Source: an uncultured Ruminococcus sp.
GTDB lineage: Bacteria > Bacillota > Clostridia > Oscillospirales > CAG-272
Length of the DNA: 64,000 nt
Assembly: GCA_964630695.1 (NCBI GenBank)
Contig: CAZVYZ010000003.1
Coordinates: 2,804 to 66,803, forward strand
Direction of reading: 5' to 3'
How positions within the stretch are numbered: position 1 is the first letter of the stretch; every line of letters starts with the position of its first letter. This document shows, piece by piece, positions 16,473-20,673 of this stretch. The notes beneath the pieces were generated by a model. It was not told the DNA's origin, did not search any database, and worked only from the letters and a program-made list of their open reading frames with translations. The position numbers and the translations under genes were made by a program.

Positions 16473-16501
16473 CGTTCCTTTCCTGTTGCGATTCTGCTTC
16501 T

Positions 16502-16530
16502 ATTATACCATGTTTCGGCGCGCGGCGCAA
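16502..16530 (-). promoter_or_regulatory. Sigma-A promoter of the deoC-deoB-cdd-nnrD operon
   Basis: Minus strand reads TTGCGC - 17 nt - TATAAT with extended -10 TGG. About 30 nt upstream of the deoC ATG. Confidence 0.5.
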
Positions 16531-16543
16531 GGGGTATTTCAGA

Positions 16544-16570
16544 AAAGAGCGCGGATTTTCCGCGCTCTTT
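16544..16570 (-). terminator. Terminator of the AT-rich island operon
   Basis: Perfect 11-bp GC-rich stem aaagagcgcgg / ccgcgctcttt with a 5-nt loop. Lies 28 nt past the stop of the 267-aa gene. The minus-strand tail is TCTG after the TTT in the stem. Confidence 0.55.
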
Positions 16571-16598
16571 CGAATCATAACATCGGATATATGGCTTT

Positions 16599-17402
16599 CT
16601 AAATAACATTCACACAGCCATTTACAAGGTTTGGTGAATCCTGAATTGGCTCTAATATTTTGAAAGTAATATGGTCTGTACACAGTATCTCCTGATTATT
16701 CTTATCAAATTGCCTTAAAACGAAGGAATATGTTCCATATGCAAGTCCTTGCACAGATAGGAATAAGTCGTTGGAATTTAATTCGCATTTTTTAAACATG
16801 GTCCAACTTTCCGGCTCCTGAACCGGTCCATATGGTCCGCCAACCGTTCTGTATTTATCGGGAATGTATAAAGTTATTTCGGTTCTCTCGCATTCCTTGC
16901 AACAAAGATTGAAATAAATGTTAACCAAATTTGTCCCTGTTGCAACTTTAATGTTTGCTGCTTTTTCTAAGGCTTCTTTCTTTTGCTGTGCGACGGCAGC
17001 ATAATATTTGTCCTTATCTGCCTCGACGTATGCTATTTTTAAAATATAGTCATCGGCTAAGCCGTTAAAAAAAGAAAATTTAATCTCATTGATTCTGTCC
17101 TCAAAATCGGCAACAATGCTATACATCCCCTGAACACACGGGACTTCCGTCCATTGCCCCTCTTTTGAAATAGAGATTCCGGAAAAAATTCGACAATCAA
17201 ATTCTTTCGGATTGATAACCAATGAATATTTCGTTTTGGTAATATCATCATCCTGATTGATGCAAAAAGAATCCGTTTGCTCATTAAATTTACCGCATTT
17301 CGCTATAGCATATTCTTTGCTTCGGTCCACAGGGTCAGTGCGGCAAAAGATGAATAAATCCGTAATGTGCCTCTTCAATATATATTTTTGATATTTATCC
17401 AC
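16599..17402 (-). CDS. Orphan 267-aa protein (island gene 2), no recognisable family
   Basis: AT-rich ORF with a GTG start at 17402. The AAGGAGGG SD lies 6 nt upstream and overlaps the TAA of the upstream gene. No TM or signal peptide. Two beta-rich halves joined by the helix AAVAQQKKEALEKAANIK. Confidence 0.75.
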   Translation of the reverse strand: MDKYQKYILKRHITDLFIFCRTDPVDRSKEYAIAKCGKFNEQTDSFCINQDDDITKTKYSLVINPKEFDCRIFSGISISKEGQWTEVPCVQGMYSIVADFEDRINEIKFSFFNGLADDYILKIAYVEADKDKYYAAVAQQKKEALEKAANIKVATGTNLVNIYFNLCCKECERTEITLYIPDKYRTVGGPYGPVQEPESWTMFKKCELNSNDLFLSVQGLAYGTYSFVLRQFDKNNQEILCTDHITFKILEPIQDSPNLVNGCVNVI

Positions 17403-17414
17403 TTTATTCCCTCC

Positions 17415-19307
17415 TTATAATGAGCAAATATATTCAATACATTGCTTGATTTCTTCGTCGGACATCTGAGGTAACACTTTTTCAGAGTGAACAATCCCAT
17501 TTCTTTGCTTTCTCAAATTATTTAACATTTGGGGCGTATACGGGTCGTAATCATTTCCTTCGTCATCATACGTGTTGAATCGATTACAGAAATGATCCAA
17601 CATTTCAGAGAAATTACCGTCTAATCGATAGTCAAACTTTAAAATTGCTTCCAGCCTGACACATAGTTTTACAATAACAATATCCCGGTTGCCTTTTTCC
17701 AATTCCGAATAAAAGAAATCTTTGGTCAATTCTCCGAGAATCGCTTCTTTTTCCTCCGTGTCAGTCAATTCATTCATTATCTTTTGTCTTACATTGCGTA
17801 AATAGTCGGCAACCTCTTGCAAAGAGGTTTGACTGTATGCCGAAGCGTTGGAATCCAATCTATGCAGTTCTGCCTGATTGATATTCAGTTCTTTCTGCTT
17901 ATCCTTAGTCCATACTTCAAGTATCCTATCTTCAATTGTATCAATGTTCTGCGCAATAACGGAATTTGCCAAATCATTCGCCTTTTCATCCACCGCAAAC
18001 CGAAACAAGGATTTCCAGTCTTTTTTTGAATACCAATTATAAAGCACCTCAAAAGGATGAATCGGGTACATATACAATGCCTCTTTTATGGAGGGCAAAT
18101 CCTTTACGTTCTTTACTTCACAGATGTTGAGGATACCATTATGCAAAGCCATTTCTACTTGCAACTTGGTATTGGAAATGGTCTTATCAAGTTTCAGTTT
18201 GGCAATTCTGATTTCATCGCCACTTGCAACATAGCATTTTGAATTTTCATGAGATTGACTGCTGAATTTAGTATCAACAAATGACAATATTTCACTGTTA
18301 AATTTGTTGAACTTTTCTACTGCTTCAAAATCCCCTTTTTCCAAGGCAAATGTGATTGTGCTTTTCAAAATATGTACAATGTAGCGCTTTGTACCAAAAT
18401 TATATTTATGAGTTATCGCATAATTGCTTAAAATGTAGTTATATGTGCGATCATAATTATCGTAATATGGTTCAATCTCTTCAAAAATTTTATGGTTGTT
18501 TTTCTCCGCAGCAGTCAGCAAATAGTGAAGTAAGTTCTGATTTTGCCCTTTATAAGCCTCTTCAATCAAGTATGGAAAAGCCGCATACCAAACGCGGTCC
18601 GATTCATTTATAGGCAAGAGGAGCGAGTTGAGTGTGTCTTCGTTAATACGCTTATCATTCACAAGCATCGTGAAGAATTGTCTTGGTATTATACAAAGAA
18701 TCCTTTGAGGCGGATTATTACTATAGATAGGTTCATCTTCCTCGGGAAGGAGTTCTTTTATTTCACTTTCATTTTTGAAGGTAAAATAACACCCGCTACG
18801 AGCGGCAATTCTTCTATCTTTCGAATTTGAAATGGGGAATTGTTTGCCATTCAGTAAAAACAAGGAATTTGAGAGAACAGCAAGTGTCAACGCTTCAATG
18901 ATTTCAAATCTTGTAATAAAGCGCGAGTCGTTTTCACATAGTTTCTTAAATACCTTAATGCTTTGATACTCTACTATGTAATCCACAATGGTTTTGCCGT
19001 TTTCATCGGAGGGTAAATCTTTCACTTTCTCTGCCATTGTAACGTCGTCATTTTTCGCACATAATTCCGCATTTGAAATTACAACGATTTCTTTTTCAAC
19101 ATCCTTACCGGTTAAAAGATAATCAATAGAAACATTGAAAAGACGTGCCATAGCGGGAAACTGAGATATATCCGGAAAACTTGTTTCGTTCTCCCATTTA
19201 CTGACCGCCTTGTCTGTCACACTTAGTTTTTGTGCAAATTCAATTTGTGTCCAACCTTTCTCCTTGCGCAAACCTGCTATCGTTTTACCAATGCTGTGTT
19301 CACTCAT
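17415..19307 (-). CDS. 630-aa XRE-family HTH protein with a large helical middle region and a C-terminal HEPN-like (R-N-x3-H) domain (island gene 1)
   Basis: N-terminus GKTIAGLRKEKGWTQIEFAQKLSVTDKAVSKWENETSFPDISQFPAMARLFNVSIDYLL is a textbook HTH_3. C-terminus LNNLRKQRNGIVHSE carries Rx4H at R602-H607 (nt 17487-17504). AAAGGAG SD lies 8 nt before the ATG. Confidence 0.85.
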   Translation of the reverse strand: MSEHSIGKTIAGLRKEKGWTQIEFAQKLSVTDKAVSKWENETSFPDISQFPAMARLFNVSIDYLLTGKDVEKEIVVISNAELCAKNDDVTMAEKVKDLPSDENGKTIVDYIVEYQSIKVFKKLCENDSRFITRFEIIEALTLAVLSNSLFLLNGKQFPISNSKDRRIAARSGCYFTFKNESEIKELLPEEDEPIYSNNPPQRILCIIPRQFFTMLVNDKRINEDTLNSLLLPINESDRVWYAAFPYLIEEAYKGQNQNLLHYLLTAAEKNNHKIFEEIEPYYDNYDRTYNYILSNYAITHKYNFGTKRYIVHILKSTITFALEKGDFEAVEKFNKFNSEILSFVDTKFSSQSHENSKCYVASGDEIRIAKLKLDKTISNTKLQVEMALHNGILNICEVKNVKDLPSIKEALYMYPIHPFEVLYNWYSKKDWKSLFRFAVDEKANDLANSVIAQNIDTIEDRILEVWTKDKQKELNINQAELHRLDSNASAYSQTSLQEVADYLRNVRQKIMNELTDTEEKEAILGELTKDFFYSELEKGNRDIVIVKLCVRLEAILKFDYRLDGNFSEMLDHFCNRFNTYDDEGNDYDPYTPQMLNNLRKQRNGIVHSEKVLPQMSDEEIKQCIEYICSL

Positions 19308-19339
19308 ACAAGATTCTCCTTTATGGATTTGTTATCTCT

Positions 19340-19368
19340 ATTATAACATATTTCTCATATCTTGTCAA
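19340..19368 (-). promoter_or_regulatory. Perfect consensus sigma-A promoter of the island operon
   Basis: Minus strand reads TTGACA (19368-19363) - exactly 17 nt - TATAAT (19345-19340). Small inverted repeat GTTAT-n7-ATAAC (19331-19347) overlaps the -10. Confidence 0.65.
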
Positions 19369-19568
19369 CCTACTTATAATTTACATGTCCGTCCGGCTAT
19401 TTTGCTTATCAATTTGAAATTCTACCATCAGTAGAGTCCTTCCCGAACTTCAATTTTCATACCGCTCGGGATGAGTAAGGATTTTGCGGATTTCATATGG
19501 GTAAACGAACAGGTACAACACGCTCCCAACGGCAATGAACGTTTTTTCGCTTCAATTCCCGAAACCCA

Positions 19569-19629: not shown

Positions 19630-20673
19630 ATGAAACTGACGCTCTCCCCCTCGGACGCACTCCGCGTTGCGCGCCTGAAAAAAATCACGGAGGAAAATGA
19701 CCGCATTCTCCGCCTGTATGCGAACTATCTCAACCTGACCCCGCGTCTGCTTGACGCACGGACGGTCCGCGACCTTGCCGCCGACTGCACAATCCCCGCC
19801 GCCGACGCATTCCGTGCGCTCTTTTCTGCATCCATTGGGCTGGATGTCCCCGATAATCCGGATGACCGCCGCTTGGAACGGGTCTATATTCAGGCAGGAG
19901 TCCGCAGTCTTTCCCCCACGCCTTACCGCAACGACGCATATGTGAAAACGGTGCGCTTCGGGGACCTGTCGGTCGGCAAATGGCGGTTTACGCACGGGGA
20001 ATACCATGCGTTCGAGCCGTTCGTCTGCGGGCATCCGGTTCTGACCTCCGATTTCCGCGAAATTCCGCAAATCGGCTTTTTTGAAGAGCGCTTTTCCTTT
20101 CCGTCCGTCACCGAAAACGGCGTGGAATGGATGACCGTCACGCCGAACGAAGCGGAAACCATGCGTGCGGTCATCGGCGAGGCGCACGGGCGGGTCCTGA
20201 CCTACGGCTTGGGACTTGGTTACTTCACATTTCACGCGTCGCAGAAGCCCGAGGTGCAGTCGGTGACGGTCATTGAGCGGGACCCCGACCTCATCGGTCT
20301 TTTCCGAAACTGCATTCTGCCGCAGTTTCCAAACCGAGACAAAATCACCGTTCTGCATGCCGACGCGTTTGAATTCACCGAGCGGGACATGAAACCCGAG
20401 GCATTCGACCTCGCTTTCGTTGACATCTGGCACGACCAGTCCGACGGTCTGCCGCTCTACCTGCGCATGAAGCGGTCGGAATCCCGTTTCCCCGCCACCG
20501 CGTTCCGCTACTGGATTGAGCCGACCCTGCTCTCTTCACTCCGCCACATGGTTACAGACCGCATCTTTGACGAAACCGCAGGCGCAGAGGTCCGCACCTA
20601 CGGAGAGATTGAAACCATGCTTGGCGACGACTATCTGCGCGCGCTTGCCCCCAAATTGCGCCGTCTTGAATGA
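19630..20673 (+). CDS. Class I SAM-dependent methyltransferase / spermidine-synthase-like protein
   Basis: Rossmann motif I VLTYGLGLGYF, then VTVIERDPD and LHADAFEF, as in the spermine/spermidine synthase fold. Function not assignable from sequence alone. Confidence 0.6.
   Translation: MKLTLSPSDALRVARLKKITEENDRILRLYANYLNLTPRLLDARTVRDLAADCTIPAADAFRALFSASIGLDVPDNPDDRRLERVYIQAGVRSLSPTPYRNDAYVKTVRFGDLSVGKWRFTHGEYHAFEPFVCGHPVLTSDFREIPQIGFFEERFSFPSVTENGVEWMTVTPNEAETMRAVIGEAHGRVLTYGLGLGYFTFHASQKPEVQSVTVIERDPDLIGLFRNCILPQFPNRDKITVLHADAFEFTERDMKPEAFDLAFVDIWHDQSDGLPLYLRMKRSESRFPATAFRYWIEPTLLSSLRHMVTDRIFDETAGAEVRTYGEIETMLGDDYLRALAPKLRRLE

Follow-up and report, generated by a model that had tools for sequence, protein, structure and literature searches.

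A compact AT-rich cassette of an uncultured Ruminococcus with a predicted helix-turn-helix-HEPN protein and a tandem beta-sandwich partner

What do the two genes of a short AT-rich island between deoC and a methyltransferase-like gene of an uncultured Ruminococcus sp. encode, and how did they come to lie there? The question was raised by an initial annotation of 64,000 nucleotides of this genome (contig CAZVYZ010000003.1, positions 2,804 to 66,803; the whole stretch is called the window hereafter), in which the island was proposed to be a horizontally acquired defence or toxin cassette. In the present study, the island was compared with related loci (L numbers) and proteins (P numbers), and both products were examined by profile searches, alignments and structure models. 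We found exactly two long open reading frames (ORFs), both on the minus strand as annotated, and the first of them (gene 1) very probably encodes a protein that joins a helix-turn-helix (HTH) to a HEPN domain, as judged from sequence. Its neighbour (gene 2) encodes a predicted tandem beta-sandwich protein. Neither product could be assigned to any characterised non-defence family, in agreement with the annotation, and the cassette family is named in no library or paper searched; the literature searched, whose coverage was incomplete, contained no paper on a pair of an HTH-HEPN and a tandem-FN3 protein. The island and its genes are placed as follows:

16571-19436, minus strand: acquired island, 2866 bp, 36.3% G+C (junctions by blastn and MAFFT against sister genomes; composition)
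19307..17415, minus strand: gene 1, 630 amino acids (ORF list)
16599..17402, minus strand: gene 2, 267 amino acids, GTG start (ORF list; AlphaFold2 fold)

The product of gene 1 was divided into the following parts:

19110..19292, minus strand: XRE/Cro-CI-type HTH, residues 6-66 (Pfam, PDB, Foldseek)
18228..19073, minus strand: variable insert, residues ~79-360 (family length comparison, alignment)
17823..18221, minus strand: helical middle domain, residues 363-495 (alignment, AlphaFold2 helices)
17418..17822, minus strand: predicted HEPN domain, residues 496-630 (alignments, Pfam at family level)
17487..17504, minus strand: catalytic-type Rx4H motif RNGIVH with R602, N603 and H607 (45-sequence alignment)

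The HTH was recognised by Pfam HTH_19 (45.2 bits) and HTH_3 (43.6 bits), both over the cut-off, by a PDB sequence match to ImmR (7t8i, E-value 1e-6) and by a Foldseek match to P22 c2 with a TM-score of 0.9 over the target length. For the C-terminal part, diverse relatives were gathered by a search with residues 360-630 and 45 sequences were aligned. The alignment displayed the pattern LRxxRNxIVHSE, whose R602 and N603 never vary and whose H607, S608 and E609 reach at least 90% conservation, and upstream of it a conserved helix of the HEPN domain, KGNxExVxxKLCVRLEA, with an invariant E553. The Rx4H motif was present in all 43 species-level partners of gene 2, in 42 of them in the RN...H form. 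When the HEPN domains were isolated, 23 of the 24 family members matched PF18735 (HEPN_RiboL-PSP; best E-value 2.2e-7), and the secondary matches were nearly all to HEPN families (HEPN_Apea, HEPN_Cthe2314, DUF4145, HEPN_Swt1). A PDB sequence search with the profile of this domain returned no relative. In the AlphaFold2 model of gene 1 (pLDDT 85.9, pTM 0.72), residues 496-629 are all-helical with a pLDDT of ~85-95. The nuclease-like component that had been suspected in the island thus corresponds to a predicted HEPN domain with a conserved RNxxxH. RRNPP-like Foldseek matches of gene 1 (E-value at least 0.01, TM-score 0.1-0.2) were set aside as too weak, the full-length search being dominated by the HTH.

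The length of gene 1 is bimodal in the family, with short forms of 318-376 amino acids (HTH, middle domain and HEPN) and long forms of 571-754 amino acids that carry the insert in addition. The middle domain is common to both, and a local hidden Markov model of it matched all 43 complete partners. One abundant metagenomic species has either a long (630 amino acids, L001-L005) or a short allele (352 amino acids, L024-L029) at one site, bordered by an LCAT-like gene and by genes for ABC transporters, with gene 2 and a third gene after either allele; therefore, the insert of ~280 residues has been gained or lost within the species. Other variants were a homologue that lacks the HTH and has an S1 RNA-binding domain (PF00575) directly before the HEPN domain (P0312), and a gene 1 cut down to HTH and HEPN, 187 amino acids long (L010 7412-7975).

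The GTG start of gene 2 is backed by the family-wide N-terminus MDKYQ. In its AlphaFold2 model (pLDDT 88.9), two FN3/immunoglobulin-like beta-sandwiches were predicted at residues ~20-126 and 152-249, linked by a long helix (residues 130-149) with the conserved pattern YVEADKxxYY. Searches against Pfam, NCBIfam, PADLOC and PHROG gave no significant match for gene 2, with sub-threshold noise only in Pfam, and the PDB sequence search was likewise limited to noise (cereblon, E-value ~0.2). Foldseek against PDB and BFVD returned only generic tandem FN3/immunoglobulin folds at TM-scores of 0.2-0.3, such as cytokine receptors and phage tail FN3 domains; these matches suggest a fold, not a function. 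The family is coherent but of modest size, 1.84 billion representatives yielding 376 clusters at 50% identity, and a few polar residues are invariant across it. On the model, gene 2 looks like a binding module more than an enzyme, and it was taken as cytoplasmic because no signal peptide was seen in the sequence. In some homologues (P0185, P0188 and P0229, the last at L037 59-1012), a helix-hairpin-helix like that of the RNA-polymerase alpha C-terminal domain (alpha-CTD; PF03118) is inserted near the N-terminus.

The two genes are closely joined in the window, and both Shine-Dalgarno sites of the initial annotation were found:

17403..17417, minus strand: coupling junction, in which the TAA stop of gene 1 (17417-17415) is overlapped by the AAGGAGG of gene 2, followed by a 12-nt spacer to the GTG (sequence read)
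19316..19322, minus strand: Shine-Dalgarno AAAGGAG of gene 1 (sequence read)

From this arrangement, gene 2 appears to be translationally coupled to gene 1. The pairing extends to the relatives. In a species-level survey, a scan of one genome per species with the gene 2 profile found 60 loci. In 43 of these, a complete HTH-middle-HEPN ORF stops between -43 and +35 nt relative to the start of gene 2; at 7 others the partner ORF was cut by the contig end, 3 were variants, 2 were degraded and the rest were not evaluable. Furthermore, the genes adjoin in every context sampled by hand, even where the gene 2 homologue is among the most distant (32-33% identity), and the pairing is kept at 23-33% identity on two IMG/VR contigs, on which gene 1 shares just 23% over the part that aligned. 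The co-occurrence of the homologues, on which the defence proposal had been made to depend, therefore holds almost without exception, and we are confident that genes 1 and 2 form an obligate two-gene unit.

In about a quarter of the loci (about 14 of L039-L098), gene 2 is followed by an optional third gene of 158-186 amino acids, as in L001 (10718-11266), L024 (7884-8432) and L018 (10533-11009); the window cassette lacks it. Its Rx4H (RSFIVH or RNYVIH) is invariant, and so is a QMxExN helix. It was not accepted as a HEPN protein, as hhalign against the gene 1 HEPN profile aligned 21 columns with a probability of 18% and Pfam gave no HEPN match. The third gene may be a second, minimal HEPN subunit and is graded here as HEPN-like only.

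Upstream of gene 1, a promoter and a candidate operator were located:

19340..19368, minus strand: sigma-70-type promoter TTGACA-17-TATAAT with an extended -10 TG (12 of 12 matches; position conserved in the upstream alignment)
19367..19375, minus strand: proximal box AAGTAGGTT, which abuts and overlaps the -35 (upstream alignments)
19421..19435, no strand: distal palindrome TCTAC-N5-GTAGA, candidate operator for an HTH dimer (motif scans)

The promoter agrees in every consensus position with that of the initial annotation. The upstream regions align well among cassettes whose proteins are 37-58% identical, and the elements common to them are an invariant palindrome TCTAC-N5/6-GTAGA, an invariant AAGTAGGTT box at the -35 and the extended -10. 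Where palindrome and box are both exact, the box lies 59-61 bp downstream of the palindrome; in L024-L029, with their insertion of 11 bp, the distance is 71 bp. The distal palindrome occurs a single time in the 64 kb, where none is expected by chance. It was found once per locus in 26 of the fetched loci (L001-L038), all with a gene 1 homologue, and never in a locus free of gene 1. Of the 43 species loci, 31 have an exact copy 122-159 bp ahead of the HTH, and ten more have a copy with one mismatch (nine at the usual position, and L092 at -46); the most divergent loci have the palindrome with one mismatch. The simplest reading, which we consider likely, is that the HTH would regulate its own operon through the palindrome. 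In most relatives the proximal box is itself part of a palindrome with 5-bp arms, AAGTA-GGTT-TACTT. At 19362-19375, the window has the consensus TTGACA as its -35, as compared with TTTACT in nearly all relatives, and the right arm of the proximal palindrome is broken. The TTGACA might weaken repression or strengthen the promoter in the window host.

The composition of the island is foreign to its surroundings, and the sharp drop that had been read from four hand-counted lines was borne out; the counts themselves were exact on recount (31.7, 35.0, 55.0 and 60.0%). The G+C content is 36.3% in the island as compared with 57.1% over the remaining window, and the island is the sole segment of the 64 kb with a G+C below 45%. 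In 1-kb windows, the mean is 0.362 in the island and 0.572 elsewhere (standard deviation 0.029), which corresponds to a z of about -7.1; in 300-nt windows from 16500 to 19500, each value is ~0.36, with ~0.60 on both sides. The G+C at third codon positions (GC3) is 0.37-0.38 in the two island genes, as against 0.63-0.74 in cdd, deoB, deoC, the methyltransferase-like gene and two CNNM genes.

The boundaries were set by comparison with close relatives of the host (UBA6330, UMGS1014 and 'Eubacterium sp. CAG:180'), in which the flanking proteins are 90-97% identical. The initial annotation had considered that the gap between deoC and the methyltransferase-like gene might be empty in relatives, but other genes sit there. 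In four sister genomes it holds three genes of ~50% G+C unrelated to the island (L011 4853-7875; L012 4912-7883), namely an XRE-HTH/zinc-ribbon/multi-pass membrane protein (277-314 amino acids), a lipoprotein of 576-591 amino acids and a small divergent XRE gene; L011 carries an additional leucine-rich-repeat lipoprotein of 446 amino acids. The ~50% G+C of this cargo is likewise lower than the 60% of the host. The gap is a variable hot spot, in which each successive cargo begins with an XRE regulator. By blastn and MAFFT, the homology between the window and the sisters stops at 16570 and restarts at ~19537, and the two edges are occupied by these features:

16544..16570, minus strand: intrinsic-terminator hairpin, stem 16544-16555/16559-16570 with a 3-nt loop, then a T-run (inverted-repeat search)
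19437..19530, minus strand: 3'-terminal relic of the resident XRE-membrane-protein gene, 79% identical to L013 6613-6699 (alignment)

The terminator hairpin that had been noted before the deoC promoter is present, with a perfect 12-bp stem, and closes the island operon. It does not belong to the island, which begins right after it; the hairpin is host backbone because its sequence is common to L012, L013 and L015, which are without the island. On the other side, the palindrome is the outermost element and marks the right edge; because it sits 1 bp inside the junction, the imported unit runs from the candidate operator to just beyond the stop of gene 2. The relic lies outside the island, and a deletion joins it to the promoter region of the methyltransferase-like gene. 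Together, the other cargo of the sisters and the relic indicate that the island replaced the resident lipoprotein gene and that a separate deletion took most of the resident XRE genes. The scans agreed with the annotation that the island has no integrase, tRNA or direct repeats: there is no tRNA within 8-28 kb of it, no direct repeat at its junctions and no recombinase ORF in the ORF list for the interval between deoC and the methyltransferase-like gene, and a classical integrase island with its tRNA target is not what was found. The junctions look like illegitimate replacement plus deletion, with no recombinase signature visible in the sequence. In addition, Rfam and tandem-repeat scans gave no retron- or ToxI-like non-coding RNA and no repeat array in the island. 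Overall, composition and sister-genome junctions uphold the horizontal acquisition of a self-contained two-gene operon, and the island was almost certainly imported as a unit.

A second lineage (L032) has the same island at the same site; L033 is a 99%-identical contig and was grouped with the window. As compared with L032, the flanks are 86-90% identical, the island genes 93-95%, and the promoter segment is identical in 129 of 129 bp. The ratio of nonsynonymous to synonymous divergence (dN/dS) was 0.13 for gene 1 (dS 0.19) and 0.24 for gene 2 (dS 0.15). Both genes are thus under purifying selection and therefore functional, and the promoter region is under such selection as well. The flanking genes have a dS of 0.36-0.76, two to five times that of the island, which probably either arose after the two lineages had separated or was exchanged between them later.

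Elsewhere, the cassette was found at many unrelated chromosomal sites. In L018 and L030 its neighbours are large serine recombinases, which may or may not be accompanied by a rolling-circle Rep protein, and in L019 an HNH homing endonuclease. The nearest relatives are in genomes of 32-46% G+C. The cassette is mobile, its family occurs here and there in Clostridia and Mollicutes-like Firmicutes of the gut, and its distribution looks like that of toxin-antitoxin (TA) or other small mobile conflict cassettes. Gene 2 loci were also seen in bins labelled Corallococcus, Melainabacteria, Campylobacter or Treponema (L084, L044, L091, L095), which could be transfer beyond the Firmicutes or binning error.

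What, then, might the cassette do? A defence or toxin function can reasonably be inferred from the domain content. Our proposal is a self-regulated HEPN toxin or abortive-infection-like module with a new partner protein, a reading that we regard as evenly poised between right and wrong; a toxin or defence role based on ribonuclease (RNase) activity is quite possible, if just short of probable. By this proposal, a dimer of gene 1 would bind TCTAC-N5-GTAGA and the GTAGG-containing -35 box through its HTH and repress its own strong promoter. Its HEPN domains would be a latent RNase. An RNA substrate is favoured by P0312, which has the S1 RNA-binding domain beside its HEPN domain. The product of gene 2, synthesised alongside that of gene 1, would bind the latter and gate the RNase, either as an inhibitor or as an adaptor that senses a trigger. 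When this balance is upset, for instance because a phage infects the cell or the operon is lost or shut off, the RNase would cut cellular RNA, invader RNA or both, and growth would be arrested. The scheme would follow the logic of TA or abortive-infection-type systems. A related and more specific reading, possible but rather doubtful, is an unrecognised HEPN immune or abortive-infection family of gut Firmicutes, in which the HTH-HEPN protein is accompanied by a tandem-FN3 partner as sensor of a phage component and sometimes by the small Rx4H protein; there, an RNase effector would sit on its own operator, and DNA-bound autoregulation and RNA-level defence would be united in one protein.

Several results weigh against the proposed module. 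The initial annotation had asked whether homologues sit in defence islands; the neighbours at ~55 species loci were mostly housekeeping genes, and among 149 nearest-neighbour ORFs, a plain count without a formal background model, there were 2 TIR proteins, 1 C5 DNA methyltransferase and otherwise housekeeping genes, so that there is no guilt by association with defence islands. PADLOC, one of the checks put forward there, matched only the HTH of gene 1 and gave no match for gene 2, nor did it match the family members beyond their HTH; tblastn of both proteins against INPHARED phages and PLSDB plasmids was also without a match. The gene 1 of the window itself stays under the PF18735 gathering score of 28.4, with 19.8 bits at full length and 25.4 for the domain alone, and it matched no solved HEPN fold in the full-length Foldseek search, which is dominated by the HTH. 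In four independent assemblies (L006-L009, 7573-7975) from the lineage of L010, gene 1 is split into 59 and 78 amino acids with gene 2 and the palindrome intact. Finally, L020 (7983-9803) has a solo gene 1 homologue (606 amino acids, 29% identity) with an intact RNDIVH and no gene 2, which argues against gene 2 as an indispensable antitoxin and hints that it is not strictly required for viability. The palindrome and the AAGTAGGTT box are upstream of this solo gene, and only a hydrophobic ORF of 58 amino acids is downstream. Hence, the RNase-type domain and the co-occurrence of the genes speak for the defence or toxin cassette as first annotated, whereas no defence-island setting and no match to a known defence family were obtained.

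Some of these results would suit a pair of transcription factors as well, in which the HEPN-like bundle only dimerises or senses a ligand, gene 2 is a co-regulator or anti-repressor, and the targets lie in trans. Such a pair, modelled on SinR/SinI, ImmR/ImmA or RRNPP-type logic, is unlikely in our estimate. The HTH is nearest to the ImmR, SinR, P22 c2 and 434 repressors, a weak all-alpha likeness to ComR, PrgX, Rgg and PlcR was seen (E-value 0.02-0.1, TM-score 0.1-0.2), and the operator architecture is strictly conserved; the alpha-CTD-like insert of some gene 2 homologues, neighbours that are not defence genes and the existence of a solo gene 1 point the same way. However, the RNxxxH kept across lineages at 23-60% identity is hard to square with a purely structural domain, and the S1 domain of one relative stands beside its HEPN. 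Nor is any other cis target visible, since the palindrome is unique in the 64-kb window; the cassette moves as a self-contained unit without cargo genes to regulate, and no TPR or peptide-pheromone gene was detected. Another alternative is a purely selfish addiction module, or a remnant immunity or maintenance module of an integrative element, with no host benefit and no anti-phage role, which we also hold to be improbable. The small size, the signature of autoregulation, the tight coupling, the sporadic distribution at unrelated sites and the lack of a defence-island context would all be expected of it, and so would the serine recombinases and Rep (L018, L030), the HNH gene (L019) and the IMG/VR contigs. 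Against it, no other mobile-element gene is near the cassette in the window and most of the ~55 species loci, and two diverged lineages keep it under purifying selection at one fixed position in the chromosome. Moreover, addiction and defence are not mutually exclusive, and the selfish module differs from the proposed one only in the selective benefit. That the AT-rich region is not acquired at all, being native DNA that evolves fast or is expressed at a low level, might be argued from the fact that at least two lineages (window/L033 and L032) have it at one and the same place. This is extremely improbable and, to our mind, already refuted by the sister genomes, four of which have unrelated genes with sharp junctions between flanking proteins 90-97% identical; the GC3 of 0.37 as against 0.63-0.74 in the flanks, the nearest relatives in genomes of 32-46% G+C and the two- to five-fold lower dS of the island agree with this.

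The cassette was further compared with known systems. HEPN-MNT, RnlA-RnlB and the single-gene AbiJ/SadR RNases are its nearest functional precedents, but it departs from the known families in defining features. In HEPN-MNT TA modules (type II/VII), an RNase-type HEPN component is joined by a minimal nucleotidyltransferase partner (Anantharaman et al. 2013, PMC3710099). The present cassette resembles it as a small, mobile and patchily distributed two-gene operon with a HEPN Rx4-6H component and a dedicated adjoining partner. It differs in the partner, a tandem FN3-like beta-sandwich here, and in the HEPN protein, which is large, stands first in the operon and has its own XRE HTH and helical middle region; no nucleotidyltransferase match was obtained for gene 2 in Pfam, NCBIfam or PADLOC. 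SadR and AbiJ are RNase defence effectors in which an HTH-like fold at the N-terminus is followed by a HEPN domain at the C-terminus, and the R-polar-x3-5-H motif of SadR is needed for RNase activity and phage defence (PMC13590631). The fusion of a DNA-binding-type N-terminal domain to a C-terminal HEPN motif is common to them and gene 1; however, they are single-gene systems with Abi_C and an AbiJ-type N-terminus, whereas gene 1 begins with a canonical XRE HTH and is tied to an obligate partner gene. Abi_C, whose Pfam accession we take to be PF14355, was not matched in gene 1 by Pfam.

In RnlA-RnlB and LsoA-LsoB, a multi-domain HEPN RNase is restrained by a bound small non-enzymatic protein antitoxin and activated on phage infection. 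They resemble the cassette in pairing an RNase-type HEPN protein with a small dedicated partner and differ in gene order, HTH fusion and partner fold; neither by sequence nor by fold was a link to RnlA or RnlB found. PF18735, the RiboL-PSP-HEPN family, is the best profile for the C-terminal domain and spans the Rx4H helix, but the XRE HTH, the middle domain and the FN3 partner are not in the Pfam entry description as far as it is visible. The best PADLOC match of gene 1 was RmrA (E-value 9.5e-11), the XRE-HTH component of the TA-type defence system RosmerTA; it covers the HTH only (profile positions 3-92 of 394), and neither a full-length RmrA nor an RmrT partner was matched. With ImmR, SinR and phage CI/Cro, gene 1 has in common the type of HTH and the palindromic operator beside or over the -35; a HEPN domain is absent from these repressors, and gene 2 bears no relation to the proteins that partner them (ImmA protease, SinI). 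An RRNPP system is not supported, as gene 1 has no Pfam TPR match and no conserved small peptide ORF was found. As in type II TA systems in general, the genes are tightly linked and include a DNA-binding protein that may regulate its own operon.

HEPN RNases are the effectors of many conflict systems, such as Cas13, Csm6, Abi proteins and HEPN-MNT; few ways of silencing and triggering them are known, and such ways are of practical interest. The cassette is compact, with two genes and their own operator in ~2.9 kb, and its predicted HEPN effector carries its own repressor domain, while the partner is a putative protein-binding beta-sandwich described by no library searched. The family is found mostly in uncultured gut Clostridia and Mollicutes-like bacteria, which are under-represented in the sources of defence catalogues. 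If active, it would represent a new way of controlling HEPN RNases and supply a new marker of mobile conflict modules in gut microbiomes, and the conserved 15-bp palindrome ~60 bp from the -35 box offers a directly testable regulatory hypothesis. Even a plain addiction module would be a clean case of cassette replacement at a chromosomal hot spot without a recombinase.

Two further observations concern the flanks. The deoC promoter (16499-16516) and the island promoter (19337-19354) are alike in 16 of 18 nt over a stretch that spans their -10 elements (ATGgTATAATAGA as compared with ATGtTATAATAGA). This likeness was considered as a recombination microhomology and rejected; because it lies 55-99 bp from the junctions, it is probably a coincidence of two strong extended -10 promoters. 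The gene on the right of the island is the following:

19630-20673: methyltransferase-like gene, 347 amino acids (weak matches to S-adenosylmethionine (SAM) methyltransferases or spermidine synthases)

It is a core gene and not part of the island because it is kept in relatives down to 50% identity. Its PADLOC match to 'mad2' (E-value 5e-8) was discarded as a sign of a system component, being confined to the SAM-binding region of a conserved core gene. In L032, the orthologue of this gene is called as two ORFs of 255 and 94 amino acids.

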